The notes under the pieces were generated by a model that ran no database searches, was not told where the DNA came from, and saw only the letters and a program-made list of their open reading frames with translations. A program made the translations under genes and the position numbers. Shown here piece by piece: positions 5,685 to 55,035 of a stretch of DNA of 64,000 nt. Position 1 is the first letter of the stretch. Every line of letters begins with the position of its first letter. This DNA comes from a phage, in NCBI GenBank assembly GCA_025611195.1, contig GCA_025611195.1_4718.1; one strand, given 5' to 3'.

Positions 5685-8591
5685 ATGAACGATATAAATA
5701 AAGGGCGCGTCGCCCTCGAACGTCAAATGAGCAATAATGACGTTGCGAAGGCACTCATGAACAAATTTGTCGCTCCTGCTCCGCAGTCACGTCTTTATAA
5801 TACACGTGATGCGGAAGGAGCGAGCGGTCGTTTCGGGTTAGTTGTTCCCGACCAAATGACGATGAACACGGTTACGCGTGCGACCGCGACAAACATCGAG
5901 GATAATAAAAACATTCTCGAGCTGTTCCCTGAACTTAAACGCGTGATGCAGATCTACGTTGCCGCGTTGACGAACCCTAACGATCTTAAGACGGTCGAGA
6001 TGTTTATCGATAGCGAAGATTTCCCCGGTAGGGTCGCAGAAATCGTTCAGCCGATGATCGATACCATCGACACGCATTTTAAGAATATCTATAAAATAAA
6101 GACGCTTATCCCTCGTATCATCGAAGACGTCTTCTTTATCAAGGGCAGTTATAACTTCGTTGTTCTGCCAGAAAGCACGCTCGACCGCGCTATTAACGGT
6201 AACGGTCAACTGAAACTTGAAGAATACGGATTTAGAGACAACCACTTTGCAAGTTGGGGGCTTTTAGGTAACGATAGTCGCAAACGTCACGAAAATCAAT
6301 TACCTTCGACGGTTTCGATGGAAGATTATTTCTCAGGCGTTAATGAAACCATACCGTACGATCCCGTTGTCCGTATAGACAGCATTAAGTTTACCAATAC
6401 CCTGCTTCGTGATAAGGACGGTAAATTCATTGAAGCGAAGATCGATATTCCGGATATGGTTACGGTTGTCGATAACCCGGATATCCTCCGTATGCCTATT
6501 TTGCATCAGCGTCGAGCAGCGACAGCGGTGCAGCGTGCGTTACGCGCGAACACATTAGGAGGTAGTGGTTTGGTAACGCTGTCGGGTGATCCAACCCAAA
6601 CCGCTAACCGACGCGAGCTAACGCAAGAGCAGGTTAACGAGATTTGGAATAAACTCAACATCCAACGCCACACTAAGGTATCTCCCGTTTACGCGTTGGC
6701 AACCCCAGATACACTCGATCGTCAAAGTGTTGGTCACCCCGGCGTGATGCATGTACCGCCTGAGGCATTAGAACCAGTACATGCGCCAGGTGATCCGGAG
6801 AACCATATCGGGTATTTAGTTCAGTTGGATGAGTTTGGTTATCCGGTGCGTTTGGTTGAAGATGCGGCGTATTACAAACAGTTGGAAGGTCGGTTGTCGA
6901 AGATCACCGCGGATATCGCAGGTACTTCAAGCAACGGCATGGCGAGCGAGATGATCGGCGCGGCCAAGAACATGGTCCAAGGTACGTCATGTAATCAAGT
7001 AGACATGTCGGCCTTCGTATCGTCGTACGAATCATTGATGCAGCGCTACATTGTTGAACGTATCGTCAACGGTTATCTTGGTAGTGCGGTGGAGATCGGT
7101 GCGACATCATCGTTTTACCTATCGATGCTTGCTCGCAGTCTCGCCCACAAGCAGACTCGTGTTTTGTTTATTCCTCGTGAGATGGTGACATACATCGCTT
7201 ATGAATACAACAAATACGGTATCGGTCGTTCACTGCTTGAAAGTACGAAGATGATCTCGTCGCAACGAGCCATGCTCATGGTTCAAGAACTGATGGCGAA
7301 AATCAAAAGTTCGTTGAACTATACGACGCTAAGCGTAATGCTTGAAGACACCGACAGAAACCCGGTCGATACCGTCGAACAGGCATTACATAGTTTCGCT
7401 CGCGTCTACCAGTCTGGTTTCCCGTTGGGTGAAACTAACCCAATGGATATCATCAACGCGTACGAACGAAGCTCGATTCGATTGAAGGTTGAGGGGAATA
7501 ACCCACGCTTCCCGAAATTGAATACAGATGTCAGCGTTGAGCAGCGTAACTATCAGTCTCCTGATAACGAATTGATGGATCGTTACCGCCGTGACCATTT
7601 CATGGGTTTGGGAGTTTCTCCAGAGATTATCGATACTTCCTACCAATCTGAATTCGCGGCTTCTGTGATTACCGCCAACGCGATGCAAGAGAAGCAGTTC
7701 ACGGTTTGTCGTGAGGTTATCACGAACGGCTTAACTGATCACATCAAGAAGTACACGGCTTACAGTCCTGTATTGTTGACGTCGCTACGAAACACGGTTC
7801 GTGCGAACATGTCTAAGCTCTCCCAAGCACAATTGAAACAGCTTTTTGGTAGCGATTTCGAAAACGGCGTTATTCGTAACGTTAATGCTTATCAGGAGAT
7901 CGACGACCAGTCAGCAACAATGGACCTGGATTATTCTAAACCGGAAGTTCAGGAAGTTATTGCCGATGCTTATGTATCCATGTTCTTAAACAGTCTGCAG
8001 GTGCGTTTACCGAACAGCAATGCTCGCCGCCTTGAAGATCAGGTACGTGAATATAATCAGTACAAGGAAGCGATTACAGCGCAACTTGATGATTATTTAA
8101 CCCCTGATTACGTCATGGGTCTGGGTGGGGTTGATGAAACAACACTGCAGATGATCCGCGCATGCATTATTGGTACCGCGATGCGTACGTGGGCAAAAGA
8201 GAACAACTTCAATCAGGAGCTGGCTGATCTCTTCAGTCTTGACGATAAGAAGAATGCCGTGCAAGATTGGAAACGTGCATCCATGGAGCATATTGAAATC
8301 ATGGGTAAATGCATGGGTGATTTTGCATTGTATATTCAGAATCTGACGAAGAAGATTGAAGAGAAGATGGGGGATCAAGCACAGGACGGCAGCGTTTCAT
8401 CTGATGGTTCTTGGTCGTCTGATTCAAGTAGTGATACCGGTTCTTCTGATGACTTTGGTGGTGATGATTTCGGGGATACCGATTTCGATACCGAAACGAT
8501 GGAGGAAACCTCAACAGAGGAGACAACCACGTCTGAGGATACGACTACCGACACAACGTCAGAAGACGAGACTTCAGGTGATATTGTCTAA
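5685..8591 (+). CDS. hypothetical large protein (968 aa, portal-sized) with acidic Ser/Thr/Asp-rich C-terminal tail
   Basis: AAGGAG SD 10 nt before ATG 5685; last ~65 aa are S/D/T/E-rich low complexity. A portal role is a size- and context-based guess only. Confidence 0.8.
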   Translation: MNDINKGRVALERQMSNNDVAKALMNKFVAPAPQSRLYNTRDAEGASGRFGLVVPDQMTMNTVTRATATNIEDNKNILELFPELKRVMQIYVAALTNPNDLKTVEMFIDSEDFPGRVAEIVQPMIDTIDTHFKNIYKIKTLIPRIIEDVFFIKGSYNFVVLPESTLDRAINGNGQLKLEEYGFRDNHFASWGLLGNDSRKRHENQLPSTVSMEDYFSGVNETIPYDPVVRIDSIKFTNTLLRDKDGKFIEAKIDIPDMVTVVDNPDILRMPILHQRRAATAVQRALRANTLGGSGLVTLSGDPTQTANRRELTQEQVNEIWNKLNIQRHTKVSPVYALATPDTLDRQSVGHPGVMHVPPEALEPVHAPGDPENHIGYLVQLDEFGYPVRLVEDAAYYKQLEGRLSKITADIAGTSSNGMASEMIGAAKNMVQGTSCNQVDMSAFVSSYESLMQRYIVERIVNGYLGSAVEIGATSSFYLSMLARSLAHKQTRVLFIPREMVTYIAYEYNKYGIGRSLLESTKMISSQRAMLMVQELMAKIKSSLNYTTLSVMLEDTDRNPVDTVEQALHSFARVYQSGFPLGETNPMDIINAYERSSIRLKVEGNNPRFPKLNTDVSVEQRNYQSPDNELMDRYRRDHFMGLGVSPEIIDTSYQSEFAASVITANAMQEKQFTVCREVITNGLTDHIKKYTAYSPVLLTSLRNTVRANMSKLSQAQLKQLFGSDFENGVIRNVNAYQEIDDQSATMDLDYSKPEVQEVIADAYVSMFLNSLQVRLPNSNARRLEDQVREYNQYKEAITAQLDDYLTPDYVMGLGGVDETTLQMIRACIIGTAMRTWAKENNFNQELADLFSLDDKKNAVQDWKRASMEHIEIMGKCMGDFALYIQNLTKKIEEKMGDQAQDGSVSSDGSWSSDSSSDTGSSDDFGGDDFGDTDFDTETMEETSTEETTTSEDTTTDTTSEDETSGDIV

Positions 8592-9014: not shown

Positions 9015-11573
9015 TTACTGCTCTTCACGTTCCAACAGATACTCGGAAGCGGTAATACCGTTTACCGTACGTACTGCTTTCAGACGAGTATCATCACTCA
9101 GAATCACGGTAACAGACTGCAGACCTTTTACTTTGGTCTCGAAGGTCTTGAATACCTGATCCAGCATACGAGCAATGCTTGGGTTGGTTGCAGCCGATGC
9201 GTGAGTGTAACCATTCTGGTTCAGCTTCAGAATCTTGGCGTTGGTTGGTACACGAAGAACAACATGCGGACGCATTGCGAACACACTGTGGTTAAACCAG
9301 TAAGCATCGTTACTATCTTCGTCGGTGACGATGTCTGGATTAACACGCATGTCTTCGGTAGCCGCGTCTGCCAAACGACGTTCGATTTCGTCAGCATCCA
9401 GAGAGCCGTCCTTCTCCAGTTCTGCACGATACTCACTCATGGCAACCAGATGACGTTCACGATTCGCTGCAGATTTTTCGTGAGCGGCTTTCAGGTAGTC
9501 ATGCATGTTGTACAGTTCTGCTATGGAAAGACGAATGTTCCACTGACCTTCGCCGTCACGATTGCAGTAGAGACACTTCAGCATGTTGACCCAGGTGTAG
9601 TAGCAATTGGAGAACTCATCTTCAATGAACTTTTGATCCATTTTAAGATCGTGAATCAGCCAACCGGACAGTTCTCCGATATCATCAACGAAGCTAGAGA
9701 TGGTGGTTTCAGAGAAGTTCTTCGGTACGATACGTTTGATCAGCTTGTTAACGTCTTTGGTCATGCTATCGTTCAGGAAATGCCAAATACGCAGAGGGAT
9801 GACGTCACGATACTGTTGCATGATCTGACGATAAGCTTTGATATCGTCGCTACGACCTTTATCAATAGACAACGCGTCCAGGAATTCATGGATAGCATCC
9901 AGCTCTTTGTCGGTATAGGTTCCCAGATAGGAATTGACCGTGGCAAGGAATGCTAATGCGTCGTTTTGGTTGACGTCAGTGTTGGTCTGCTGAATGATCG
10001 CTACTGCAGCTTTGGTTTCAGCATCCTCAACGCTTGACGCTGCGATCGCGTCGGTAACAGTAAACAGTTTCATTTCGCGCTGTTCGCCGACAACGATCGG
10101 TTCACGTTGAATCGGTTTGTTAAGACTAACGCGAACAACTTCTGCTTGCGCGATACGATCCAGTTTTACCATTTCCTGCTCTGCCATACGACGAGCGGTT
10201 GGATCTGATTCAAGTTCGATGTATTCCACTTCTTCCTCCGTGAGGGATGTAATGTCAACAATGGTTTCATGAAGAATTCCGTTTTCGTCGATACGTGCTC
10301 GACGAGCGAAGTGTCTGAAGTCATACAACGTTGGCCAGCGACAATTCGGCGCGTAGTCTTTGGCCTTCAAACGCATCTGCATAAATTCTTCATGTTGAAC
10401 AACACGACCGTAACGCTTAGCATCTTCGGTCGCATCAATTGGATTAACGGTCTTTGTTACCGTAGCGGAACGAGCCGTACGAATGGGTTCCGGTTTAGTC
10501 TGCACAGGTTCAGGTTGAACGGATTTCTGTTGTCCGGCCTTAACATGCCATTCGGGTTCTTCGTACCGTTCAGCAAATTGCTCGGCTGCTGCAAAGATAT
10601 CATTGATGCCACCAATATCTCCTTCTGGGTTCGTCGAATATACCCGTGGTTGCGGTGCCTCATAACGCGGCGCTGCGGTAGCAGGTGCGTCATTAACGAT
10701 AGGATCGTCATCACCAACATCGTACAAACGGTTGAACGCACAATCCTTCGAATCGATATACGATGGAGCTTGTGGTTGGATAACCGTCGGTCGAGGCTGT
10801 GCGCCGTATCCCGGCATTGTTGGAGCCATACCACGCATAACTGCCGGGTTAGGTTGGTATTGTGGTTGTGGGTAGGTTCCACCATACGTGGGATATGCGG
10901 GCTGTTGCGGTTGACCGTACCCACCGCCAACCATCGCATTTGCTTGCGGCCCACGGTAAGTCATCCCCAGTTGCATTACCTGCTGCTTCAGACCACGGGA
11001 CTTCTGCGCTATTTGCGCTAGACTCCCACTTTTATTTAGCTGCGTGTACTTATTCGCGGCTTCCGGGTTAATGCGCGATAATTCAATCGCACGATAATAT
11101 TCCGGGTATTGATTGGCTTCAAAGAGCCAGGTTACGAGGTGATACAGCGCAACTGTGCTCACAGCAGCAGAGACGATCTGGTCGTTGGACGCATTCTGCG
11201 GCATCGGGTTGATGTAAGAGAATACGTTCCAACAACAGTCTTCAACAAGCGATTCCATCATCATATCGTTATTGGTGTAACGTGCGACGAACTCGGTTTG
11301 TATTTTATCCTGTTGGGCGAAGTCTTTCAGGACATTGAAGACGGCTTGACGGATTTTGACGATCGTCGCTTCTTGGGTGATGAAGTTATAGTTCTGCTGA
11401 TATGATGGTTGTTGGTACTGTGGTTGTTGATAGGTGTTATTCGGGTATGCGCCGTACGGTGGTTGCTGGTACTGTTGCTGGCGAACCTGCTCAGCCGCAT
11501 AATTAATCGTGCTCGCATAAGGGTTTTCGCTGTAGCCCATTTGCTGATACATGTTGTTACTGCCATTATACAT
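9015..11573 (-). CDS. hypothetical protein (852 aa) with Gln/Tyr/Pro-rich low-complexity segments
   Basis: AAGGA SD before ATG 11573; N-terminal ~64 aa and an internal ~58 aa stretch (GGGYGQPQQPAYPTYGGTYPQPQYQP...) are Q/Y/P/G-rich. Confidence 0.8.
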   Translation of the reverse strand: MYNGSNNMYQQMGYSENPYASTINYAAEQVRQQQYQQPPYGAYPNNTYQQPQYQQPSYQQNYNFITQEATIVKIRQAVFNVLKDFAQQDKIQTEFVARYTNNDMMMESLVEDCCWNVFSYINPMPQNASNDQIVSAAVSTVALYHLVTWLFEANQYPEYYRAIELSRINPEAANKYTQLNKSGSLAQIAQKSRGLKQQVMQLGMTYRGPQANAMVGGGYGQPQQPAYPTYGGTYPQPQYQPNPAVMRGMAPTMPGYGAQPRPTVIQPQAPSYIDSKDCAFNRLYDVGDDDPIVNDAPATAAPRYEAPQPRVYSTNPEGDIGGINDIFAAAEQFAERYEEPEWHVKAGQQKSVQPEPVQTKPEPIRTARSATVTKTVNPIDATEDAKRYGRVVQHEEFMQMRLKAKDYAPNCRWPTLYDFRHFARRARIDENGILHETIVDITSLTEEEVEYIELESDPTARRMAEQEMVKLDRIAQAEVVRVSLNKPIQREPIVVGEQREMKLFTVTDAIAASSVEDAETKAAVAIIQQTNTDVNQNDALAFLATVNSYLGTYTDKELDAIHEFLDALSIDKGRSDDIKAYRQIMQQYRDVIPLRIWHFLNDSMTKDVNKLIKRIVPKNFSETTISSFVDDIGELSGWLIHDLKMDQKFIEDEFSNCYYTWVNMLKCLYCNRDGEGQWNIRLSIAELYNMHDYLKAAHEKSAANRERHLVAMSEYRAELEKDGSLDADEIERRLADAATEDMRVNPDIVTDEDSNDAYWFNHSVFAMRPHVVLRVPTNAKILKLNQNGYTHASAATNPSIARMLDQVFKTFETKVKGLQSVTVILSDDTRLKAVRTVNGITASEYLLEREEQ
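10754..10930 (-). other. Gln/Tyr/Pro/Gly-rich low-complexity coding segment
   Basis: Encodes GGGYGQPQQPAYPTYGGTYPQPQYQPNPAVMRGMAPTMPGYGAQPRPTVIQPQAPSY within 9015-11573; a similar segment occupies the N-terminal ~64 codons (about 11380-11573). Coordinates approximate. Confidence 0.6.
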
Positions 11574-11608
11574 TTCTTACGATCCTTTTTATTTTATTCG
11601 GTTATGTG

Positions 11609-13405
11609 TCAATCGATTATGTCACGATCGTTAATTTCTACAATTTCTTCATCGAATCGACCGACGTCTTTCTTCAAGCCTGCATTTGTTGCTGCAACGT
11701 CATTTGCGATTTGTGGGGTAATGATTAACCGACCGCGTTCATCGATAGGTGCGTACATACTGAACTTCTGACGTCCGGTTGGTTCGGAGTGTGGAAGATT
11801 CAGATAGCTTGCGCAGAACGGGATGGAACCACTCACCAAACGACTCTCGTCAGCCAACGCAGCACCGCCTGCATTTTGGCTCTGGAGAACAACATGCGTG
11901 CTCACTTTGAACAGCATGCAATCGCCCGGTGACTGAATCGATGTTGCCACTTTCTCACGCTTATCACGATTGCTCTGGATATTGAGAATCGCTTCCGTTG
12001 CAACTTGATTGCGCAACGCCTTCTGTACATCGCGATTGGTCATCTCTTTACGGTTGTTCTGTCGTTTACCACGTTCCGTGGTTTTAAGATGGAACCCCAG
12101 TTTAAAGATGCTTTTACGCACATCCTCCATGACGTATTCCAACACCATCAATTCCTTACCGAACATCGTCGTGGTATCAACACGACTCATTTCGATAGTA
12201 ACGTTGTCAATCAGATACGCCATAAATTCGTAGAAGTCGTCGCAAGGAATATTTTCCTGTTTGAACTTCTTCTGTTGAATTTCATCAACGTAAAGATCGA
12301 GACTGTCGATGTGGTGGTTTACATCACGCAACAAACGCGCATCCGCATTGTTGTTATTAAAGATAATCAAACCGAGTAATGTACGCCAATGGTCTGGCGC
12401 ATTAGCGAACTCTTCAACCGGATAGTCTTCCGGGAAACGATCGTAATAACGGTCGATGAGATATAAGAACGCGCCGACAAGGCCAAGAACAATACGTTCC
12501 GTACCTCCACGTCTTACAGCGATTTGAATATCGGGATGTTTATAACGTACAGCGTTAGCGCTACGGCTTTTACCGCTTTTGCTGATACTAAAGCCTTTAG
12601 GAATAACCCCCATGGTGCGATAGATTACCCATTGGTCGCGCGGAAAATCGCGTTCAGCAAGATTCCGTCCGGTGACGGCTTCGACGCCAGCAAAACGTCG
12701 GAAACATTCACCCACCCCATACTTCGCAAAGAGATAGTGACCCAGTGTGGTTACGCTGGTGTGGTTGATGTTGTCACCGTTCACTTTACTTTGTTTGGTA
12801 AGATGATAGATTTGCGACCAGGGTAACGACAGGTAATGACGATAATCGATACCCGTTGGTGTATCATTGCTCAGGAACTGATACGGTGTACGTTTAACCG
12901 TGATTTTGTCACGCGGAAGCATGATGAACGCCATGTCTTTCGTGTAACTGATTACAGGGTCAGCGAGCACTGCACTGAGAATGAAGTTCGCACCACGTAG
13001 ACGCATTTTACCACCCTGACCTACCGCGGGCAATAGGAGAGGATGTCGGATAATGCAGTAGTCCTTTCCTGGTTCGCGGCGGTCACCTGATTCCATCGCA
13101 CCATACCAGCGGAATTCTAGCATCACCATAAACACGTCGGAAGGTGCAAGGTCGAAGGTCAGCTTACCGCTATCCTTCCCTTTGGTTTTCTTTCCTCCGC
13201 TTAAGTAGTGGAACTGTTCGCGGGCCATACAACGACGCAGGCCATGATACACCAGATCCTTAGGTAAACTATCTTTGCTGTTCCGCCAAAGACGATCAAC
13301 ATAGGACTCAACATCTTGCATCTTATCGACGACGATGTTGCGTGCTATCTTCTCGTTCATCTTCGGTGCAAGCTCAGCGACAGCTTTGCAGAATCTAGGA
13401 TCCAT
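11609..13405 (-). CDS. hypothetical protein (598 aa)
   Basis: AAAGGAG SD before ATG 13405; no P-loop or polymerase motif recognised. Confidence 0.8.
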   Translation of the reverse strand: MDPRFCKAVAELAPKMNEKIARNIVVDKMQDVESYVDRLWRNSKDSLPKDLVYHGLRRCMAREQFHYLSGGKKTKGKDSGKLTFDLAPSDVFMVMLEFRWYGAMESGDRREPGKDYCIIRHPLLLPAVGQGGKMRLRGANFILSAVLADPVISYTKDMAFIMLPRDKITVKRTPYQFLSNDTPTGIDYRHYLSLPWSQIYHLTKQSKVNGDNINHTSVTTLGHYLFAKYGVGECFRRFAGVEAVTGRNLAERDFPRDQWVIYRTMGVIPKGFSISKSGKSRSANAVRYKHPDIQIAVRRGGTERIVLGLVGAFLYLIDRYYDRFPEDYPVEEFANAPDHWRTLLGLIIFNNNNADARLLRDVNHHIDSLDLYVDEIQQKKFKQENIPCDDFYEFMAYLIDNVTIEMSRVDTTTMFGKELMVLEYVMEDVRKSIFKLGFHLKTTERGKRQNNRKEMTNRDVQKALRNQVATEAILNIQSNRDKREKVATSIQSPGDCMLFKVSTHVVLQSQNAGGAALADESRLVSGSIPFCASYLNLPHSEPTGRQKFSMYAPIDERGRLIITPQIANDVAATNAGLKKDVGRFDEEIVEINDRDIID

Positions 13406-13444: not shown

Positions 13445-14881
13445 TTACTTTTTCGATGACGTCTTCTCAAGAATCTTGAAAAAGGTCATACCTATACCGA
13501 CAACGGCCGCAGTTATACTCGCAGCGGCTTTCCAAACATCGACGTTACGTTGACGTCGCGCTTCTTCCGCTTCACGTTGTCTTTTTGCCTCTTCATCACG
13601 TCGACGTATCTCAGCAGCAAACTCGTCGTGCTTACGTTTGGCTTCTTCGTCTCGACGACGAAGTTCAGCGACGAATTCTTCATGTTTGCGTTTGGCCTCG
13701 TCATCACGACGTTTTAAATCAGCTTGATAATCTTCGTGTATTTGTCTACGTAGATCATCTTGACGTTTCATTTCGGCTTGGTGTTGTTCCATCCTACGTT
13801 TTGATTCGTCTCTAAGCTGATCGAGTTCGGCTTTGTGTTGTTCATCGCGCAGCTTTGCGTCGGCGCGATGCGCTTCGTGCATCTGTGCGATAACCGCCTT
13901 GTGTTCATCCGCCATACGCCGCATTTCAGCCATCACCCCTTTAAGGGTTTCTTCTGATGACTTACGTTCATAGCTACGCTGGTCGAAATCATTTTTGTAG
14001 GCTTCTTTTTGGATGGGGTCGCGCCAATGCAATGCCGATTCACGTGTCGGAAAAACATTATACTTCCACATCTCTTTTTCCAAATCTTCGACCGGTACGA
14101 AGACGGAGTCGTTATTCCCGAAGGTAACCAACATACCTGGCGCGCCTGCTCCATTCGTTGGTTTTATTTCGAACGCTTTCCCCAGCACGTTAACCCATAG
14201 GCTATACGGATTATGAAAGTCGGGCGGCGTCCAATGGATAGTGAGTTGCGTTCCGAGAATCCGGAAACCCTCTGTCTTTCCTGTCAAGCTCCGCGCACAT
14301 GTTGCGATGTAGGGGTGATCAATCCCTTTCGTAACATGGTCTGCGCTTTTGTATTCTCCTTTAACTTTTACGATTGCCACGTTGATTTGCGCGACATAAA
14401 TAGGTTGATTAAAGTTCAACGTGTTGAGGTCAATTTGACATATCTCATCCAGCGTATCGTACCAGTCTTGCTGGTCTAATAGACGCGGTATTTTCTCTGT
14501 GTTAACGGTGCGATGGATATGCGGTTTCCTTATCGCATAACCGGTGCCGTTTTTAACGCGGAGTATATCCCGACGTCTACCCGCGTAGACGAAGTTTCTG
14601 AATGCACCATTCGCATTAGATATGTCATGGCTGTCAACTATTACAGGACTACGAAATTTTGAACGTCGTACGATCCTGAATGTATTGCCGTCCTCAACTC
14701 TACCAGGAATGTACTGGAACATATTGTCGGAGGTGATAACCAACACGGTATGGCCGGATTCATTAATACATGCCCACCCTAATTCCAGGTCATACAACGG
14801 TTCAGCATAACCGTCAATGCGATATGCGTGCGTACCATCCCACGGTTCGAACGCGGTATCACATATTGGCATGGAGGGCAT
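13445..14881 (-). CDS. tail-anchored coiled-coil membrane protein (putative)
   Basis: Track start TTG 14887; GGAGG SD then ATG at 14881. C-terminal third is charged repeats (RRRDEEAKRKH-EF-AE) followed by a hydrophobic segment ITAAVVGIGMTFFKIL near the C-terminus. Confidence 0.75.
   Translation of the reverse strand: MPSMPICDTAFEPWDGTHAYRIDGYAEPLYDLELGWACINESGHTVLVITSDNMFQYIPGRVEDGNTFRIVRRSKFRSPVIVDSHDISNANGAFRNFVYAGRRRDILRVKNGTGYAIRKPHIHRTVNTEKIPRLLDQQDWYDTLDEICQIDLNTLNFNQPIYVAQINVAIVKVKGEYKSADHVTKGIDHPYIATCARSLTGKTEGFRILGTQLTIHWTPPDFHNPYSLWVNVLGKAFEIKPTNGAGAPGMLVTFGNNDSVFVPVEDLEKEMWKYNVFPTRESALHWRDPIQKEAYKNDFDQRSYERKSSEETLKGVMAEMRRMADEHKAVIAQMHEAHRADAKLRDEQHKAELDQLRDESKRRMEQHQAEMKRQDDLRRQIHEDYQADLKRRDDEAKRKHEEFVAELRRRDEEAKRKHDEFAAEIRRRDEEAKRQREAEEARRQRNVDVWKAAASITAAVVGIGMTFFKILEKTSSKK
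13553..13714. repeat. three degenerate tandem copies of a 54-bp unit inside the coiled-coil gene
   Basis: Units 13553-13606, 13607-13660, 13661-13714 (about two thirds identical by eye), each encoding an 18-aa RRRDEEAKRKH-EF-AE-type repeat. Confidence 0.6.
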
Positions 14882-15028
14882 CGTCAACCTCCATCAGATT
14901 GAAAACTATCACGCATAATGCATTTCCCTTTTCTTGTTCTTATCAAGCCGACAGCCGACGGTTTCAGCATCGTCCCTAGCGCGAGAACGACCTTACGTGT
15001 TGTCTATGCCTTATTAATCGCAGGCGTC

Positions 15029-21312: not shown

Positions 21313-21383
21313 TTTACCTTTCTATGTTAGGTGGATTGCGGATAGAAGAATCAATGCATAAACTAATTTAAGTTTGTTAAGGT

Positions 21384-22286
21384 TTACTTAGCCTTTGAGT
21401 TATGCGGACTAACATGCTGTTGTACTCGTTGGATTGTATCGTAGTACGGGTTAGATTGGTTGAACATGTTGTTGTGTGGGGGATAGCCATATGGCGCATT
21501 TTGCCTTGTTGGTGAGAAACCTTGTTGAGAAGGACGGTTTGAATTAACCGCGAGTACGTAGTAAACCAAATTTTGACGGTCGAATGTTCCTTCGTTTTTG
21601 AAAGTGTCGGCGTAGGCTTTTACCGCTGGAGTGAGCCTATCACCATCGGCTGTAATAATTGTACCGTCTGGGTAAACTTCCCGAACGACGCACCATGTTC
21701 CGATGAGAACATCTTTAGGTGCTGTATTACCATATCCGGTTGTAACGGTAAGGTAAGTATCGAACCCTTCAGAACAACAAGGATGACGATAGATGGGTCC
21801 TGTCATTTCCGTTCTATCGGTATCGCTACATTGTTCTATTGAGAGCGATGATGTGTCGGTTTTGAAATTGTCAAATTCTTTCTTTAAGTCGATTACGGGT
21901 TCTTTCGTATAGTACTTCTTGATTGCTTTGACGTAAAGATCAGGAACGGTTGTCAGCAATCCGTTATACCTGATTCTCAGGTTTTCGAGTAATCCAAAGA
22001 TGCTCGCGCATGCCTGTTCGCGAGGTTTTGTAAGATAAGAGATCCCCTCAGGAACGCTGGGATCTTTGAGAAAGAAGATTGCGTTATTGTCGTTGTGCGA
22101 TGCGTTGAAGAAAACGATTGATTCGATATATACGGAGCATAGGCTGTCATTGGCGTCGTCAGATAACACCCAGATGCACTCATCGGTCGTCTTGTTTAAA
22201 AGTTCTGTTTTGTCGACCAAACGTTGTTTCATTGCGAGGAAATGTGCCTGTTGTTCAGCAGTTAATTCACGATAAATAGTGGTCAT
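21384..22286 (-). CDS. hypothetical protein, Cys-containing paralog of 22372-23145
   Basis: AAGGAG SD before ATG 22286 (track start 22364). Shares (G/K)PIY(R/I)HP(C/E)C...YL(T/T)(V/I)T.G...REVYPDG(T/R)I with the upstream gene. Confidence 0.7.
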   Translation of the reverse strand: MTTIYRELTAEQQAHFLAMKQRLVDKTELLNKTTDECIWVLSDDANDSLCSVYIESIVFFNASHNDNNAIFFLKDPSVPEGISYLTKPREQACASIFGLLENLRIRYNGLLTTVPDLYVKAIKKYYTKEPVIDLKKEFDNFKTDTSSLSIEQCSDTDRTEMTGPIYRHPCCSEGFDTYLTVTTGYGNTAPKDVLIGTWCVVREVYPDGTIITADGDRLTPAVKAYADTFKNEGTFDRQNLVYYVLAVNSNRPSQQGFSPTRQNAPYGYPPHNNMFNQSNPYYDTIQRVQQHVSPHNSKAK

Positions 22287-22331
22287 GTTGGGCTCCTTGA
22301 TTACGATAAGGATGATTGCGGTTTTGTGGGT

Positions 22332-22364
22332 TTGGTAGGGCCCTAAACAAAGGAACCCTACCAA
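22332..22364. terminator. hairpin between the two Cys-containing paralogs
   Basis: ttggtaggg-(15-nt loop)-ccctaccaa, 9-bp stem. Confidence 0.4.
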
Positions 22365-22371
22365 TATTAGG

Positions 22372-23145
22372 TTAATCAGGATCGGCGTAGAAATGGTGAG
22401 GATAGCCGGAGTACGATCCTGCGTTACCGGCTATGGATTCTTTCTGGGAATCGACGACGAGCGCATAGAACTGTCGGGAATTTGTTAGCGTTGAGAAATA
22501 AGCGGAAAGGACTTTTTCATTCAATGCATCACAAGGTAGGCAGGTGCGACCGCAAAACGTCACGATACGGCCGTCAGGATAGATCTCACGAATCATTCTC
22601 CACTCACCGATATCCACTGGTGATGGCGCTGCTACACCACCTGTTATCGTTAAGTAACGATCGTACGTGGTATGGCATTCAGGATGAATATAGATCGGCT
22701 TGTTCGTTTCGACAGGTTCCGAAGTATCTCGACGACTAAGAAGCTCAACGACTTCAAGATAAATCGTTGGTAGATCGCGGAGAATACCGGTGCTACGACG
22801 TTTCTTTGTGATTCGCGGACGAATCTCGTTGAGAGCGTATTCGAGCTTACGTTCAGCTTCGTACGCATCGAGTTTTATCAAGCGACCCGGTTCATCGGAA
22901 TGATCCTGAGTTACGTAAACGAAATACGTGTCGCCTTTTGCAGCGTGAAAGATTCGAGCGACCTTAAATGTTTCTACGGTACGATAACCAAGGCGCGATT
23001 GATTTTCCACAGGAGAAAATATCCAATGCCGTCCTTCGTCAGCCTCAACAATTTCGTTGAAACTATCTGTCTGTTCTGGGACCTGGTAGTCAGCCAGTAA
23101 TGTGTCGAGAGCATCATCAGCCAGTTTGATGTAAATATCTGTCAT
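22372..23145 (-). CDS. hypothetical protein, Cys-containing paralog of 21384-22286
   Basis: GAGGA SD before ATG 23145; C-terminal KPIYIHPECHTTYDRYLTITGG...IREIYPDGRIVTFCGRTCLPC. Confidence 0.75.
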   Translation of the reverse strand: MTDIYIKLADDALDTLLADYQVPEQTDSFNEIVEADEGRHWIFSPVENQSRLGYRTVETFKVARIFHAAKGDTYFVYVTQDHSDEPGRLIKLDAYEAERKLEYALNEIRPRITKKRRSTGILRDLPTIYLEVVELLSRRDTSEPVETNKPIYIHPECHTTYDRYLTITGGVAAPSPVDIGEWRMIREIYPDGRIVTFCGRTCLPCDALNEKVLSAYFSTLTNSRQFYALVVDSQKESIAGNAGSYSGYPHHFYADPD

Positions 23146-28600: not shown

Positions 28601-31600
28601 TTACTTGTAGGCACCGCAGTGTGCTTTGATGAGGAAAAGCACCGCTTGCATCGGTTTATTGAACTGTTGCCATAACGTCAATGCCGGATGGAACAACCAA
28701 TCTTCCAGGCCAAGAACAATACCGTAGTTAACGACATTATTAACATCGTTCTCAACGTTGAGTTCGCTATCCAGGAATTTATCGATTGAACGCAGGGCCT
28801 GCATGGCGTTGTCAGCAATAAGCCACGCTTCATGCGCTTCACGAGCCGCACGGAGCAATGCTTCCAGTTCGCTGGTGCTGGCTACCGGTAACTCCTCACT
28901 GGTGAGGTCGTCAGAAACCGTAAACTGGCGATTGATACCGGTGTAGATCCACTGCATCAGTTTCGCCGCTTCCTCGTTCGGGTTGTTACGTGTTGTCGCA
29001 TAGGTCGCGCTCATCTTCACGATATGCGTTTCACCAAGATACGCTTTGGACCCAACGCCTTTACGATCGCTGTCTTTCCACGGCTGTACGGTAGCGACCA
29101 TGAGCTTATCCCATTTCTGAATAGGAATACGCTTCAGACCAACAACCGATCCGGCGGATGTTTCGGACTGGTTGCTCTTCCGCACTTCGCCGAGTTCACG
29201 ATCGATAGCAACGATTAATTCACGCGTCATGTTACCAAGCATTTTGATTTCACCCAACGCAGCGATAAGCTTCTTCACATCGGTAATCGGTTCACCACCG
29301 ATGGTAAGATGACGGATGAAACGTTTCAGAATAATCCGTTCTGCTGCTGGGTTACCGCGACGCGCTTTAGCCAACGCTTGCTGTGTTTCGGCGAACAGCT
29401 TATCCCATGGAGCCGTAGCGGCGGTATAGTAACGGTGGTTGGTTTCAATCCAGTTACCGATACGGTTGACCGCACTCTTAACGGTATCCATGAATCCTTC
29501 CATCGCAATTTCGGTAGCTTCGACGTTACCCTGGAAGTTATCAGGACCGATCTCGCGTGCCGCTACCAGAATACCTTCCACCGCACTCACCGCATGCCGA
29601 CCGATAGCCAGATTTCGCTGTGCTTCTTCAGCACGCTCAACGAATTCCACCACTGCAGGATCGTCAACGATTTCCGCCTCGACAACAACACGTGTACCCG
29701 CATCACCTTCCAATGTCTCGATAGTGACAACCGGATCGTTTTCACCAGCAACATCCTGGTACTCTTCCTGTTTGAGTTCGCCGTTATCGGCCGCTGCGAC
29801 AGCGGTGAGTATACGGACGGTAACATCACCGAGTTCTTTCGCAGCGAATCCGTAGACGGTGCATGCTGTTGTCGCAAAGTTCATCAGTGCGCGTGTGCGT
29901 TTAACGATGTAGCCAACGCCGTAGTCACTACCGTTCTTATCGAGGTCGCGGATTAACCGTTCAGCTGTCTCCTGAAGTTGTGTAGCTGCTTTCAGAAGGT
30001 CTTCGTTAAACAGTTTCGTTGACGCATCGATCAGCATATCAACGCTAACGTTAGACGGTACGGCATCATCCTGCTGTTTCATGGCGCTAAGTTCGTCGCG
30101 GAACTTACGGATACCGTCTAAAGCGGCGTCGGCACTATGTCCGAACGCGGCCACGCCAGACATTGTTGTTGCTGTCAGCATGTCCGTATCAGCGTTTGGA
30201 CTTTCGCCTTCTTTAAGATCCTTCAGCTGGTCGAAGAACTTACGGGATGCTTCAGCGATACGTTTGCTGTCTTTTACCGCGTTTACGATTTTATCGACGG
30301 ATTTAGCATCGTTCGCAAGCAGCGTATCGAGTTTGTTCCATTCGACGTTGACTTTCTTTTCATCCGAAGTATTACTCGGTGGAGGAAGCAGTTTCATCAC
30401 CGGTGCTGTGCGTTGTTCTTTGGTCAGCTTGTTGGCCTTCCCTTCGATTTTTTTCTTATTAACACCAAAGAGATTTTTCAAACGCGCCACGAGGGCTTTT
30501 AAGAACTTCGCGACCGCTTCGTAAACCGATTTCAGAATCTGTTTAAAGCGACCCGGCTGCTTTTCCCCGTCTTCCAGATTAAGATCGCTGTTCAGCGCGA
30601 CATCAAGCTGTTTGTACGATTCCATGATGTATTCGTCTTTGATTTCAGGACGAATCTCGAAGCTTTCCATCGGACCTTCAGCCGGACGGAATTCCATTTT
30701 CAGTTCGCCTTGCAGAGTAGGGTCGACAATGGCGATCGCTTCACCCTGACCATCAGCGTTAAAGCGTTCAGCGTAACGAGTACGACGAACAATAACACTC
30801 TTATCCCCATCAAGACGACGTACCACCATGGTGCCAGGAATGTACGGTTGTTCTGTTTCAATGACGGTAACATCTGTCTCACCTTCACCGAGAATAACCG
30901 ATGCGCGCTGTTCAACAACAGGAACATCTAATACACCACGGGCTTCCAGCTCTTGATGAATTTCGAACGACTCTTGTTTCAGATCTTTATCTTCTTCGTT
31001 TTCGTCGTCTTCATCGTCACCTTTGGTGTTTTCATCACCCTCGGTGGTTTTGGTGTCGGCAGCATCAGCATCGGCGTCTGCGTTGGTGGGTTCTTCGGAC
31101 GCAGGTTCGGCGGTGCCGTCCTCGGTAGGCGTTTCATCAGCGTTATCGACATCAACATCGCCTTGCAGTTCTGTTTCCTGAGCAACTGCTTCGGCTTTCT
31201 GCTCGCCGGTATTACCGTCATTAGCGTCGACAGCAGGTTGTTCGTCAGCGACGGTATCTTCAACCTTTTCTACTTTCTCTACGACACGTTTAATCACAGT
31301 GACTTTGATGGGTTCTTCCGTTGTTTTGGTTTCTGGTACCGCATCGGCTACCGCAGGTGCTGTTTCAACAACAGGTTCTGCTTCTTCCGGTTCGACGACA
31401 CTACCTTTAACACCCTCGGTAGTTTCCGCAGGTTGTGCTGCCTGTTCGATTTGTGTTGGGTTGGTTGGATCGATGGCGTTAGCCGCATCCTGAATCTTGT
31501 TCTTCAGGTTATCGCGGTCAGCGTTAACGGTCGGGTCATTGGTCACTTTCGGTGCCGGTGTTTCGGTCGGTGCGTTTGCCGGATACGGGTTCTTCGGCTC

Positions 31601-31984
31601 TTCACCAGGTGCGGTTGGTACCGCGATCAGAACGAACGGTTGAACATCGTTACCGTCTTCCATGGTCACGCCACCGTTGCTCGGTGTGAAACGAATTCGT
31701 AAACTACCATCGATAGGACGGGTCACAATAACAGCACGCACGACATCCTCACCGTTTTCATCCGTGCTACGAATCACACGAACGGCGTCATCAACAGTAG
31801 CCCCTTCCTCGAGCGTATCTGATTCGATCGTCGCTTCGATGCTGTCTGGCCGTGCCGCTGTAGGTAATGCGATCACTTGCTCTTCTTTATCGGTAGAAAG
31901 CGTTGCTTTGACTTCGATGGGTGTATCGCCGCTTTCCAGGTTAAGATGCGACTTACGCATCAGATCAGCTAACGATTTTTTCAT
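28601..31984 (-). CDS. large head-type protein (1127 aa) with acidic low-complexity region; member of the paralogous inner-body-like family
   Basis: AAGAGGA SD before ATG 31984; ~180 aa Asp/Glu/Thr/Ala-rich segment; carries the family helix (PMESFEIRPEIKDEY...RFKQILKSVYEAVAKFLKAL). Confidence 0.8.
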   Translation of the reverse strand: MKKSLADLMRKSHLNLESGDTPIEVKATLSTDKEEQVIALPTAARPDSIEATIESDTLEEGATVDDAVRVIRSTDENGEDVVRAVIVTRPIDGSLRIRFTPSNGGVTMEDGNDVQPFVLIAVPTAPGEEPKNPYPANAPTETPAPKVTNDPTVNADRDNLKNKIQDAANAIDPTNPTQIEQAAQPAETTEGVKGSVVEPEEAEPVVETAPAVADAVPETKTTEEPIKVTVIKRVVEKVEKVEDTVADEQPAVDANDGNTGEQKAEAVAQETELQGDVDVDNADETPTEDGTAEPASEEPTNADADADAADTKTTEGDENTKGDDEDDENEEDKDLKQESFEIHQELEARGVLDVPVVEQRASVILGEGETDVTVIETEQPYIPGTMVVRRLDGDKSVIVRRTRYAERFNADGQGEAIAIVDPTLQGELKMEFRPAEGPMESFEIRPEIKDEYIMESYKQLDVALNSDLNLEDGEKQPGRFKQILKSVYEAVAKFLKALVARLKNLFGVNKKKIEGKANKLTKEQRTAPVMKLLPPPSNTSDEKKVNVEWNKLDTLLANDAKSVDKIVNAVKDSKRIAEASRKFFDQLKDLKEGESPNADTDMLTATTMSGVAAFGHSADAALDGIRKFRDELSAMKQQDDAVPSNVSVDMLIDASTKLFNEDLLKAATQLQETAERLIRDLDKNGSDYGVGYIVKRTRALMNFATTACTVYGFAAKELGDVTVRILTAVAAADNGELKQEEYQDVAGENDPVVTIETLEGDAGTRVVVEAEIVDDPAVVEFVERAEEAQRNLAIGRHAVSAVEGILVAAREIGPDNFQGNVEATEIAMEGFMDTVKSAVNRIGNWIETNHRYYTAATAPWDKLFAETQQALAKARRGNPAAERIILKRFIRHLTIGGEPITDVKKLIAALGEIKMLGNMTRELIVAIDRELGEVRKSNQSETSAGSVVGLKRIPIQKWDKLMVATVQPWKDSDRKGVGSKAYLGETHIVKMSATYATTRNNPNEEAAKLMQWIYTGINRQFTVSDDLTSEELPVASTSELEALLRAAREAHEAWLIADNAMQALRSIDKFLDSELNVENDVNNVVNYGIVLGLEDWLFHPALTLWQQFNKPMQAVLFLIKAHCGAYK

Positions 31985-37257: not shown

Positions 37258-38583
37258 TTACTGCTGTGCTGCGTCAGCCGGTTTCTCAGCCGCCTGGCCG
37301 CCGTACTCTTTCAGCATTTTAGCAGCGCCGTCCAGGACAGCGTTACCTGCCTGAACACCGTATTTCATCAGACCAGTCTGCGGGTTCACGTAGCAGGAAC
37401 GTGCGTCTTTCAGTGCAGACAGTACAGCTTGAACACGCTGTTTTTCCTGAGCGGAAACTTCGCCTTTCTTAGACAGATCAGCTTCCATATCGTCACCGAA
37501 TTTAACAGCGTCTTTGAAGCCCTGGGATTTCTTACCGATGTTGCCTTTCAGCGCCAGCAGTTTGTCAGCCAGTACTTCAACACCGCTAACCGCAGCGGCC
37601 AGCTGATTCAGGGACAGGACGGTAGCTTCAACTTCTTTTGCTTCACCGGAGCGTTCCCAGGTTACTTTACCGTCGTTGGTTTTGAAACCCCAACCTGCCG
37701 GGCCAGCAACATCTGCGATTGCCGGTGCGTTCAGTTTATCAGCGTACTCGGTGTGAGATTTAGCAACAACGGTGTTGACGAATTTATCAGCACGGTCGTC
37801 AGCAGCCTTCATTGCTTTCTCGAAGGTGTCAGCGATTTTGGTCGCACCGGTAACCAGATCGTCGCCACCGATGTAACCTGAAATGCCGCTACCCAGGGTA
37901 ACTTTGGCATTTTTAGCAGCGCCTTTACGTTTGGCAATCATTTCTTTCAGTTTAGCAGCGCGTGCTTTCAGTTTGGTTGCGCCGTCGAAGATACGATCCA
38001 TGAACTTCACGAAGGTTTCCCAGGAAGTTTTCAGGAAGTTCTTGATGGTTGCCCACAGTTTCTGCCACCATTTTTGTTCTTCCAGGAAGATCATGTTGGT
38101 TGCGTCGTAACGGGAAGCGGAACCACCGAAGCTTTCGAAGGACGGCATGGTTTCCGGCAGTTTGAAACCGATAGTACCACACAGGCGTTTCAGGTTACGC
38201 ATGTGTTCCTGAGCGGTTTGTGCAGACATACCACCGTCTTTTAGGTAGCTTTCGGTTGCAACAACGGTTTCCGTCAGTTCGTCCATGGCTTCGTCCATGG
38301 CTTCTGCGGTTTCGTCGTCTTTTGCAATTTCGATAACAACAGCATCAACCTGCTCGATATCGCCACGAACTTCGATAGCCAGTTCGGTTTCAGCTGCGGT
38401 ATCTTCAGCGATTTCAGCGCGTTCGGTCAGTTCAGCTACAACGGTTTCATCTGCTGCTGCTGCGGCATCAGCTGCCGGTTCTGCTTCAACGGTTGCCGCT
38501 GCATCTGGATCGATCTCAGCAGCCAGTTGAACCAGCTGTGCGTTAGATGGATTTGCGACAAGACGATCAAAAATAGAAGGCAT
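37258..38583 (-). CDS. inner-body-like paralog, highly expressed (host-optimised codons)
   Basis: AAAGGAAAC SD before ATG 38583; Ala/Glu-rich N-terminal ~150 aa with many A-x-E sites; codon usage like the capsid gene; motif ESFGGSASRYDATNMIFLEEQKWWQKLWATIKNFL. Confidence 0.8.
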   Translation of the reverse strand: MPSIFDRLVANPSNAQLVQLAAEIDPDAAATVEAEPAADAAAAADETVVAELTERAEIAEDTAAETELAIEVRGDIEQVDAVVIEIAKDDETAEAMDEAMDELTETVVATESYLKDGGMSAQTAQEHMRNLKRLCGTIGFKLPETMPSFESFGGSASRYDATNMIFLEEQKWWQKLWATIKNFLKTSWETFVKFMDRIFDGATKLKARAAKLKEMIAKRKGAAKNAKVTLGSGISGYIGGDDLVTGATKIADTFEKAMKAADDRADKFVNTVVAKSHTEYADKLNAPAIADVAGPAGWGFKTNDGKVTWERSGEAKEVEATVLSLNQLAAAVSGVEVLADKLLALKGNIGKKSQGFKDAVKFGDDMEADLSKKGEVSAQEKQRVQAVLSALKDARSCYVNPQTGLMKYGVQAGNAVLDGAAKMLKEYGGQAAEKPADAAQQ

Positions 38584-51645: not shown

Positions 51646-52965
51646 TTAGGCGACAATAGAGTCAAGTGTTGCTGCCGTTTTAAACAGATCGTTGTTGATA
51701 ACCGTAGACAGTGTTTTCTGAACCTGCTCCTGCTTCACGGCTTGCTGAACATCAGAACGCAACGCGATGGTAATGAGCTCCATAACGGTACGATTATCGT
51801 TGACCGTTTTCAAGATCTTGTCGATTTCTTTTATCGCGTCTAGTGTCGAAACGCGGATATCCTGAGGTAAATCACGATCTTTAAGACGTCCAACCAACTC
51901 TTGTTTTAATTTCGCAACACGATCCTTGTCGCTGGTGTACGTGGAATAGGTAAAGTCGTATAGTGTTATTGTTTTCAGGTTGACGAAAAGAGCTACCGTA
52001 CTCATTGTACCCAGGATTGGGTTAATTAACGATAAACCAACGATTGCGCCAATAACGGACAATGAACATACAGCATATTGCGTCCAAATACTATTGCGAT
52101 CCCTTACTGATATTTTTCCGAGACGTTTGTAAATTTTTGCTAGCGCGTCTGCCATTGCAGCTCCGCCGCCATGACGGGTGACGAATTGATCGGCGACAAA
52201 TTCCGCTGAAGTATCGGAATAGCGACCCATGTGCGTTGCGACACGTGTCTGCTCTTCTTTATTGCTTATATACACGGTGTACCAGGTGGCAACATCGCTT
52301 GATTCCGCAATGACGTTGACGTCAACCGTTGTACCCATCGCATCGTTTAATGATTTCGCGAGCGTGATCTTTTTCTCTTTATCTGTTGTTTGTAGTAATT
52401 CGCGTGCGGCGGTTGCGAGAGAAAAATCCGTCTTAGCGGATTCGGCGATAAATTCCAGGAAAGTAAAAGCGTGCCCAACTTCGTGCAATACAAACGCTGC
52501 TTTGTTTTCCGGAGTGAATTCCGTATCACGAATAAATCCGTCGGTTACAAATACGCGGATAACGATTTTCTCGAACGCACCTTTCACCCTACCATTGACA
52601 AGATCGACCACACCGACGATTTCATCGATATTCTTACTTAACTGTTTAAAATCTCTGTTTCGATAGAACTGTTTACGCCATTCTTCAATAAGCACATTGT
52701 TTTTTGTAATGTCTGGAGTAATACAGGAACAGTTAATTTCACTCATGTTCGGTATTACTTCTGTCTGGATGGTCAACCCAGTGTGTTTGCGTATTAAATC
52801 GGATAGTGGCTTACCACTGATATATTTTACCTTTTCTTCATAGCTGGTAAGATTATCCATTGTTTTGAATAACTCGGTCATTTCCTTGAACAAGGAACCA
52901 TCTTGAAACTTGATGGCCTCCATCGTTAATTCGTCATGACCATACACGCGTTGTAGTAATGACAT
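51646..52965 (-). CDS. putative membrane-associated Zn metallopeptidase (HExxH)
   Basis: GAGAG SD before ATG 52965; motif AFVLHEVGHAFTFLEFIAE (HExxH plus downstream Glu); ~40-residue hydrophobic stretch YAVCSLSVIGAIVGLSLINPILGTMSTVALFV. Confidence 0.5.
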   Translation of the reverse strand: MSLLQRVYGHDELTMEAIKFQDGSLFKEMTELFKTMDNLTSYEEKVKYISGKPLSDLIRKHTGLTIQTEVIPNMSEINCSCITPDITKNNVLIEEWRKQFYRNRDFKQLSKNIDEIVGVVDLVNGRVKGAFEKIVIRVFVTDGFIRDTEFTPENKAAFVLHEVGHAFTFLEFIAESAKTDFSLATAARELLQTTDKEKKITLAKSLNDAMGTTVDVNVIAESSDVATWYTVYISNKEEQTRVATHMGRYSDTSAEFVADQFVTRHGGGAAMADALAKIYKRLGKISVRDRNSIWTQYAVCSLSVIGAIVGLSLINPILGTMSTVALFVNLKTITLYDFTYSTYTSDKDRVAKLKQELVGRLKDRDLPQDIRVSTLDAIKEIDKILKTVNDNRTVMELITIALRSDVQQAVKQEQVQKTLSTVINNDLFKTAATLDSIVA

Positions 52966-52977
52966 TGTACACTCTCT

Positions 52978-55017: not shown

Positions 55018-55035
55018 TGGAAGTTTTATGTGTTT

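Follow-up and report, generated by a model that had tools for sequence, protein, structure and literature searches.

The locus and its neighbourhood

The stretch of phage DNA analysed here, called the window throughout, comprises 64,000 nucleotides of contig GCA_025611195.1_4718.1 (GenBank assembly GCA_025611195.1). Over its first 25 kb it shares 95% identity with the nucleus-forming jumbo phage (chimallivirus) Escherichia phage vB_EcoM_Goslar, and the window is that of a Goslar-like E. coli chimallivirus. Our subject is the open reading frame (ORF) at 9015..11573 on the minus strand, a complete coding sequence (CDS) of 852 amino acids with an ATG start, for which an earlier note made from the sequence had claimed two segments rich in Gln, Tyr, Pro and Gly. 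Both are present as it placed them, at residues 9-64 (YQQMGYSENPY...YQQNYNF) and 216-272 (GGGYGQPQQPAYPTYGGTYPQPQYQP...). We find that the protein is very probably a divergent Goslar-clade ortholog of JADA (phiKZ gp124 / Pa36 gp316), that its tracts are compositionally the most extreme of the proteome, and that they may help it to cluster at the early infection vesicle.

The ORF is 95.7% identical (tblastn) to Goslar gp38 (Goslar_00038 / YP_009820723.1), which is annotated as 'hypothetical protein'; its identity as JADA is not stated in the Goslar annotation. The published table of chimallivirus core genes jumps from gp039 to gp036, and gp38 is not among its entries. Literature matches to 'gp38' concern phiKZ gp38, not the Goslar protein. 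The neighbourhood is of the Goslar type, with portal gp36, a 92-aa ORF (gp37), gp38, the non-virion RNA polymerase (nvRNAP) subunit gp39, gp40 and the major capsid protein gp41. A gap of 35 nt separates the nvRNAP subunit gene from the co-directional JADA ORF.

9015..11573, minus strand: CDS of 852 aa, ortholog of Goslar gp38 and very probably a divergent ortholog of JADA (phiKZ gp124, Pa36 gp316)
11583..11587, minus strand: Shine-Dalgarno-like AAGGA, 9 nt upstream of the ATG at 11573
11609..13405, minus strand: nvRNAP subunit of the phiKZ gp123 family (Goslar gp39), the upstream neighbour

The position of the AAGGA site supports translation of the low-complexity tract at the extreme N-terminus of the protein (LCR1), and close relatives keep this tract, with in-frame indels. 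Long ORFs on the opposite strand at 9201-9956 (+) and 10269-11021 (+) are shadows, ruled out by the strong purifying selection on the minus-strand frame. No Rfam match was found between 7000 and 15000 on either strand, and scans with promoter and terminator consensus sequences gave nothing above shuffled expectation.

The protein as a divergent ortholog of JADA

Searches of PHROGs, Pfam and NCBIfam with the protein matched no family; a match to Cas9_C_2 lay below threshold (18.5 bits against a cut-off of 27) and was treated as chance. A full-length word-indexed search, probably swamped by low-complexity words, returned only four close relatives (79-99% identity), and an exhaustive HMMER search of 1.84 billion representatives added a single more distant homolog, P0005. 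This 774-aa protein is 33-35% identical over its full length and is encoded on a Goslar-like metagenomic contig with matching gene order. Used as an intermediate in tblastn, P0005 found gp124 of Xanthomonas phage Xoo-sp14 (E 2e-6) and, weakly, gp204 of phage 201phi2-1. These two proteins, like phiKZ gp124, are each encoded by the ORF directly downstream of the nvRNAP subunit.

The identification as JADA rests on a profile-profile match and this shared gene order, with a structural match that is supportive but not decisive. Alignment with hhalign of the Goslar-clade profile to that of phiKZ gp124, 201phi2-1 gp204 and Xoo-sp14 gp124 gave a probability of 98.6% and an E-value of 7.2e-16 over 260 columns, pairing residues 388-674 of the Goslar clade with 338-611. 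A five-way alignment carries the similarity of the C-terminal domain (CTD) on to the C-terminal end, at an identity of about 18-19%. phiKZ gp124 is in turn essentially identical to the protein in PDB entry 9RP3, 'Gp316/JADA' (9rp3_A, 1666 bits). A Foldseek search of the PDB with an AlphaFold2 (AF2) model of our protein returned 9rp3_B and 9rp3_A (E 5.8e-5 and 8.1e-5, probability 1.00) as the sole matches below 0.001, the next being at E 0.7, although the match rests on a poor model (mean predicted local distance difference test score, pLDDT, 44) and its TM-score on the target is 0.37. Searching PDB sequences directly with the Goslar-clade profile gave no match, so the link to JADA needs profile-profile sensitivity, and BLAST, PHROGs, Pfam and NCBIfam did not make it; a search with the CTD alignment returned only eight proteins.

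Gene order extends the family further. The nvRNAP subunit gene is followed, co-directionally, by an ORF of 516-911 aa in Goslar, the lineage L002, phiKZ, 201phi2-1, Xoo-sp14 and 12 further lineages. Adjacency to the nvRNAP subunit, shared with 15 other phage lineages inspected, is the syntenic hallmark of the family.

JADA itself is essential, early and abundant. Residues 1-170 make up its N-domain and residues 270-721 its C-domain, which forms a rigid homodimer with a novel fold; a long disordered linker joins the two domains, and the CTD alone is enough to trigger the bacterial immune sensor Avs5 (PMC12931631). In uninfected cells JADA is diffuse, and upon infection it forms foci at early-phage-infection (EPI) vesicles; its molecular function is called unknown by its authors (PMC12931631). 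At 30 min, phage transcription is strongly altered by antisense knock-down of PHIKZ124 (PMC12571901). Among phiKZ genes, none above 2,154 bp in length carried a transposon insertion (PMC12676376), a statement that we infer to extend to gp124, which is 2,166 bp long. Localisation, essentiality and the triggering of Avs5 are known only for the Pa36 and phiKZ orthologs.

This biology bears on the suggestion in the earlier note that the tracts are typical of fibre- or matrix-forming proteins, and on the reading built on it, in which the protein would be a virion or ejected structural component whose tracts are fibre, matrix or internal-body material in the capsid. The gene does sit among head genes, between those for the major capsid protein and the portal, and Goslar gp038 was detected in CsCl-purified virions with 26 peptides, 28% coverage and an estimated ~17-39 copies per virion (bioRxiv 10.64898/2026.04.21.720040). 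In the same preparation, however, PhuZ and chimallin, both non-virion proteins, reach apparent copy numbers of ~170 and ~126 (bioRxiv 10.64898/2026.04.21.720040, Table S4), so carry-over of an abundant intracellular protein is the simpler explanation. The protein is also outside the 28 modelled structural proteins and is unmentioned in the text of the Goslar virion paper, and neither 201phi2-1 gp204 nor phiKZ gp124 carries a virion-protein flag, in contrast to their neighbours. With JADA made early and diffuse when expressed in uninfected cells (PMC12931631), and with no PHROG or Pfam structural family matched, a place in the virion is very improbable and the fibre or matrix option is poorly supported. 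As an observation on that dataset, other low-copy 'virion-associated' calls in Goslar Table S4, like that of gp038, may reflect intracellular carry-over.

Domain organisation

The protein shares with phiKZ gp124 and 201phi2-1 gp204 a layout of N-domain, long low-complexity linker and C-domain, residues 206-385 being of low complexity or low pLDDT. The tracts flank ordinary folded sequence, as the earlier note had described, in the form of a helical N-domain and a large C-domain.

11382..11573, minus strand: LCR1 (aa 1-64), a Q/Y/P/N-rich prion-like N-terminal tail, characterised by composition, residue spacing and the ratio of nonsynonymous to synonymous substitution (dN/dS)
10959..11381, minus strand: N-terminal helical domain (aa 65-205), with AF2 helices at pLDDT ~60-70, in the same position as the JADA N-terminal domain (NTD)
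10758..10958, minus strand: LCR2 (aa 206-272), G/Y/Q/P-rich, the first part of the inter-domain linker
10419..10757, minus strand: linker part 2 (aa 273-385), Pro/acidic-rich, with a short predicted helix at aa ~323-336 (INDIFAAAEQFAERYEEPEW)
10701..10736, minus strand: candidate short linear motif FNRLYDVGDDDP (aa 280-291), tentative, from alignment
9018..10418, minus strand: CTD (aa 386-852), homologous to the JADA CTD (PDB 9RP3)

The internal Q/Y/P/G tract opens the inter-domain linker, a disordered part already known from JADA, and the N-terminal Q/Y/P/N tract is an extra tail of the close Goslar relatives. LCR1 is expanded by ~11 residues of YQQP-like units in the relatives P0003 and P0004, and is missing from the more distant Goslar-like P0005 and P0008 and from the Pseudomonas clade, whose N-termini are short and N/Q/P-rich. 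Besides the homologous CTD, the three-part layout and the gene position, there are clear differences from JADA of phiKZ and Pa36. The window protein has 852 residues rather than 721, and carries the additional 64-aa N-terminal tail; its linker is ~180 aa long and Tyr/Pro-rich, whereas that of JADA is ~100 aa and Q/G/N/S/M-rich; and relative to the Pseudomonas clade its CTD has an insertion of ~75-100 aa (about residues 690-765 in the five-way alignment). For the N-domain, hhalign comparison of Goslar-clade NTDs with those of 8-10 other lineages, tried twice, gave a probability of 0.2%, and this domain agrees with the JADA NTD in position, length and helical character only.

Two elements of linker part 2 bear on the idea that JADA is a docking hub, whose short linear motifs would bind specific host or phage partners (replication or division proteins, the nvRNAP, or a vesicle-anchored protein, for example) without collective assembly. 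FNRLYDVGDDDP aligns with ANSLYD[VI]P..EP in the linker of the phiKZ/201phi2-1 clade, so that an LYD[VI] motif lies at an equivalent linker position in both clades, and the short helix is conserved, being kept in P0005 and P0008. A second-hand account has phiKZ gp058, gp124 and gp287 co-purifying with host DnaX and FtsZ complexes, and the product of the neighbouring, conserved gene of the phiKZ gp122 family has a tail-anchor-like C-terminus. The motif is short, however, with ~0.1 chance occurrences expected per 450 aa by our own estimate; it was not found in clades other than these two, and it lies outside the Q/Y-rich stretches. Docking of this kind is a distinctly unlikely account of the tracts.

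Composition of the two tracts

The bias of the tracts was compared with 17,946 forty-residue segments from a crude gene set of 54 non-overlapping ORFs of the window. The JADA ORF reaches a maximum Q+Y+P+G count of 28/40 against a mean of 6.85 (SD 2.86), the next gene reaching 19, and a maximum Q+Y count of 21/40 against a mean of 3.2 (SD 2.0), the next gene reaching 13. Both tracts lie ~7-9 standard deviations (SD) above the window proteome, with binomial tail probabilities per segment of ~2e-13 (Q+Y+P+G) and ~3e-12 (Q+Y). Across the whole Goslar genome (245 ORFs, 73,151 aa) the top uncharged polar tract is likewise that of gp38. The possibility that the segments are not biased relative to the rest of the proteome was checked in this way; the bias is real and the most extreme in the proteome. 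Tandem Repeats Finder detected no DNA tandem repeats in the CDS, synonymous codons for Gln, Tyr, Pro and Gly are mixed within the tracts, and relatives differ there by in-frame indels, all of which makes the bias a feature of the protein.

The prion-like composition claimed in the earlier note is therefore real and extreme, and the sequence is almost uncharged and studded with tyrosines. LCR1 contains 15 Gln, 12 Tyr, 9 Asn and 6 Pro, with charged residues at only three of its 64 positions and aromatic residues at 13. Tyrosines at positions 35, 40, 43, 48, 53, 58 and 62 recur about every five residues. The coefficient of variation of the spacing between aromatic residues (Y/F/W) is 0.47, compared with 0.81 in composition-preserving shuffles (P 0.012; P 0.002 for Tyr alone), and in the N-terminal tract of P0003 the spacing is again more even than in shuffles (P 0.0006). 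LCR2, which has no acidic residues, shares the uncharged polar composition, with spacing that is not significantly regular (P 0.51).

The description of such sequences as unusual in phage proteins stands within this proteome and not beyond it, as low complexity recurs in most members of the family and also in ChmC. ChmC (gp176; MK327938.1 160931-161719, outside the window) holds the runner-up uncharged polar tract of the Goslar proteome, an N/G-rich C-terminal region, and the two most prion-like tracts of that proteome are both in proteins tied to phage compartments. In PhiPA3 the N/G-rich tail of ChmC is needed for condensates with RNA in vitro. The likeness lies in the phage family and in an uncharged polar low-complexity tract, ranked second only to that of gp38. 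The differences are that ChmC has a Whirly domain tetramer fold unrelated to gp38, that its tract is C-terminal, N/G-rich and poor in aromatics (2/40 versus 8/40 in gp38), and that the role of ChmC is linked to the mature nucleus and the export of mRNA there, not to the EPI vesicle.

Sup35 N, FUS and hnRNPA1 are the eukaryotic examples of prion-like or FUS-family low-complexity domains. As these are generally described, the gp38 tracts resemble them in their Q/N/G/P/S spacers, regular Tyr stickers and near-zero charge; they differ in being without homology, much shorter (64 and 67 aa), richer in Pro and below 30 Q/N per 80 residues. A Q/Y-rich tail could in principle act as a true prion, switching to a self-propagating amyloid, and the Q/N/Y/G/P composition with YQQP-like units recalls the Sup35 N-domain in particular. 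The Michelitsch-Weissman criterion for prions is at least 30 Q+N per 80-residue window, a count which P0003 and P0004 reach, while the window protein has 27. High Pro content (6/64 in LCR1, 14/67 in LCR2) disfavours amyloid, the tail is missing from P0005 and P0008, and a lytic phage with an infection cycle of ~1 h has no obvious use for a heritable conformer. We regard a prion switch as extremely improbable.

The disordered linker of the E. coli single-stranded DNA-binding protein (SSB) is G/Q/P-rich, connects a folded oligomeric domain to an acidic motif, and is said to drive SSB condensates. gp38 resembles it in a GQPQQP followed downstream by an acidic DVGDDDP stretch. Mimicry of the SSB linker was set aside, since the acidic patch of gp38 is internal rather than C-terminal and the match is one of composition only.

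Further low-complexity tracts were seen elsewhere in the window. At 21361-23140 there is a 1.78-kb insertion relative to Goslar, which has 89 bp there. Its ORF at 21384-22364 (-), of 300-326 aa, has a C-terminal Q/N/P/Y-rich tail (…SNRPSQQGFSPTRQNAPYGYPPHNNMFNQSNPYYDT…) that is the window's second-highest Q+Y+P+G tract (19/40), and it matched no PHROG or NCBIfam family. The portal (gp36 homolog, 5685-8591 +) has a strongly acidic S/T/D/E tail at residues ~905-968 (…DDFGDTDFDTETMEETSTEETTTSEDTTTDTTSEDETSGD), the lowest-entropy 40-aa segment of the window, and acidic or Ala-rich N-terminal or internal tracts occur in the head-region proteins at 37258-38583, 28601-31984 and 61615-62253.

Selection on the tracts and their recurrence across lineages

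Codon alignments with P0003 and P0004 (dS about 0.8-1.3) gave dN/dS values of 0.06-0.09 for LCR2, 0.06-0.17 for LCR1, 0.14-0.15 for the N-domain and 0.09-0.11 for the CTD, the tract values resting on few sites and a dS that is partly saturated. Constraint on the tracts equals or exceeds that on the folded domains at this divergence, and the tracts are under purifying selection. LCR2 is 87-90% identical among clade members of 81-96% overall identity.

The gene of P0003 (L025:3001-5592) is itself a mosaic. Its CTD is 98% identical to that of the window protein with a dS of 0.23, and its N-tail, N-domain and LCR2 have a dS of 1.2-2.6 and 76-88% amino acid identity to the window protein, and resemble P0004. 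This pattern suggests a recombination breakpoint inside the disordered linker.

For the 12 further lineages the ORF downstream of the nvRNAP subunit was taken, those without a match being assigned by synteny only. A hidden Markov model (HMM) of the CTD recovers the proteins of Eowyn (58 bits), FLC9 (36), PCH45 (34) and RSL2 (31), with weaker matches to Ea35-70, an EL-like phage and FishSpeaker. Low-complexity tracts lie at the N-terminus, after the N-domain or at both places in most of these lineages, with differing chemistry; the following list includes Xoo-sp14.

Klebsiella phage Eowyn: a 163-aa Q/P/Y tract (49 Q, 15 Y)
Erwinia Ea35-70: a Q/M/P N-tail and a Q/P/L linker
Burkholderia FLC9: a G/Q/N/W tract
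Erwinia EarlPhillipIV: an N/G/S tract with four NPF[LT] motifs
Aeromonas D6, Vibrio 2-TSL, Shewanella FishSpeaker: Q/G/P/M or Q/N/G N-tails
Xoo-sp14, Ralstonia RSL2: R/D/G-rich, RGG-like linkers
Serratia PCH45: an R/E/S/D-rich linker, similar in character to those of Xoo-sp14 and RSL2
SEGD1: a mainly G/S tract
EL-like phage: an acidic tract only

The Arg/Gly/Asp-rich tracts recall RGG domains. In the EarlPhillipIV ORF (L018:5762-7312) the four NPF[LT] motifs stand between N/S/G spacers (NPFTSGGGNSSNNPFLSNNSNAGNSNNPFLSNNNSAGQGNTNDNPFLG) and recall FG- or NPF-type repeats; this ORF has no significant match to the CTD HMM and holds the JADA position by synteny only. As far as we found, a family-wide interchange of low-complexity chemistries is not described in the literature.

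The main rival to a functional role is that the tracts are a passive tether, flexible and inert spacers that leave N-domain and CTD dimer free to contact different partners, with a Q/Y/P character owed to drift or to a mutational or compositional bias of the lineage. The linker is not resolved in the cryo-electron microscopy (cryo-EM) of JADA and is described only as disordered (PMC12931631). Between clades neither sequence, length nor composition is conserved, some tracts being G/S or acidic, and the N-terminal tract is absent from P0005, P0008 and the Pseudomonas clade. At high divergence, however, LCR2 is more conserved than the N-domain, the tracts are rich in aromatic or Arg stickers and not in the Gly, Ser, Thr, Glu and Lys typical of inert linkers, the tyrosines of LCR1 are evenly spaced, and a conserved motif is possibly embedded in the linker. 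On balance we consider a purely passive role doubtful.

A proposed sticker scaffold at the early infection vesicle

Our preferred reading, held tentatively, is that the tracts are multivalent sticker tracts which help the dimeric JADA ortholog to cluster at the early infection vesicle. The CTD dimer would bear two arms, each with two nearly uncharged, Tyr-studded tracts, and so form a multivalent sticker-and-spacer scaffold. At low concentration this scaffold would be dispersed; where it accumulates, or where a partner nucleates it, at the EPI vesicle or nascent nucleus, it would self-associate, and the resulting focus or condensate might help to organise early transcription and mRNA handling. 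Other lineages would reach the same end with other stickers, such as Trp/Gly, NPF or Arg-rich RGG/RD-type sequences, and such swapping of sticker chemistries would account for a low complexity that persists although sequence and composition change. Phase separation would be a plausible fit to the infection-dependent foci published for JADA, and the proposed mechanism would match both these foci and the PHIKZ124 transcription phenotype. Counted in favour of functional tracts are the extreme composition, the purifying selection, the even aromatic spacing of LCR1, the recurrence of low complexity among lineages and the position of ChmC as runner-up.

Several points weigh against this reading. The JADA paper treats the linker only as disordered or flexible, and activation of Avs5 needs the CTD only (PMC12931631). 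Disorder is itself deduced mostly from composition and from the cryo-EM of an ortholog, the AF2 models being of low confidence (mean pLDDT 39 with 5 sequences and 44 with 12) and the basis of no statement on the fold other than the Foldseek match to 9RP3. For LCR2, Eowyn and 201phi2-1 the evenness of aromatic spacing falls short of significance, and the maximum Q+N count, 27 per 80 residues in the window protein and 26 in Goslar, stays below the threshold of 30. Between the window and Goslar, the closest pair, the dN/dS of LCR2 is 0.19 compared with 0.03 for the NTD and 0.04 for the CTD, which a tether would lead one to expect, and the constraint at higher divergence is read from few sites with partial saturation. 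Tract composition and length vary widely, the G/S tract of SEGD1 being like a plain linker and that of the EL-like phage acidic only, and a passive spacer would show the same variation. The foci at the vesicle could, finally, arise purely from a specific binding partner.

A bolder form of the sticker reading, which we consider unlikely as it stands, is that the early infection vesicle is surrounded by a membraneless layer, so far unrecognised, which JADA would scaffold, with vesicle membrane, polymerase and condensate joined in one module. A rigid, possibly nucleic-acid-binding CTD dimer would carry sticker-rich arms whose chemistry has been swapped repeatedly while their collective behaviour was kept; nvRNAP, ribosomes and early mRNAs would be concentrated in the layer, and it is this layer that Avs5 would patrol. 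The module would consist of JADA, the nvRNAP subunit and a tail-anchor-like protein of the gp122 family, encoded directly upstream of the nvRNAP subunit.

13445-14887, minus strand: homolog of Goslar gp40 (phiKZ gp122 family, core gene cg35)

This protein has charged helical repeats (RRRDEEAKRKH[DE]EF[VA]AE[LI]) and, after them, a hydrophobic extreme C-terminus (VWKAAASITAAVVGIGMTFFKIL). The 19-aa segment of highest hydrophobicity lies at the C-terminal end or within ~25 residues of it in each of the 11 lineages checked, with Kyte-Doolittle values of 1.1-2.0 (at least 1.6 in 7 of the 11) that are tail-anchor-like. Knock-down of PHIKZ122 strongly perturbs phage transcription, as does that of PHIKZ124 (PMC12571901). 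The gp122-family protein may be a membrane anchor, at the EPI vesicle, in a module with the nvRNAP subunit and JADA; in the literature we found no paper that joins gp122 and the EPI vesicle.

Significance for JADA function

What is new here is the recognition of gp38 as an unannotated divergent member of the recently described JADA family, and nothing is overturned by it. The assignment gives a name to a 'hypothetical protein' of a model jumbo phage, and in enterobacteria it points to a candidate trigger for defences of the Avs5 type. For an essential, early and abundant protein that is recognised by a bacterial immune sensor, it gives a testable handle on function, which rests on the Goslar protein being JADA, on its disordered parts being the most prion-like of the proteome, and on most lineages keeping low complexity while exchanging its chemistry. 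Goslar infects E. coli and already has knock-down and imaging tools of its own, and the resulting hypothesis is cheap to test in this tractable phage. Two wider questions are touched: by what means the infection vesicle draws in the first machinery for transcription and translation and puts it in order, and what prepares the passage to the phage nucleus.

A variable region of the window

Away from the locus, positions 51697-59181 of the window correspond to Goslar 78209-84973 and form a variable region. The Goslar NUMOD1/HNH homing-endonuclease gene gp69 (~81183-82966) is missing from the window between 54679 and 54702, and stretches that are unmatched or more divergent relative to Goslar lie at 51697-52859, 55031-55986 and 56546-58179.

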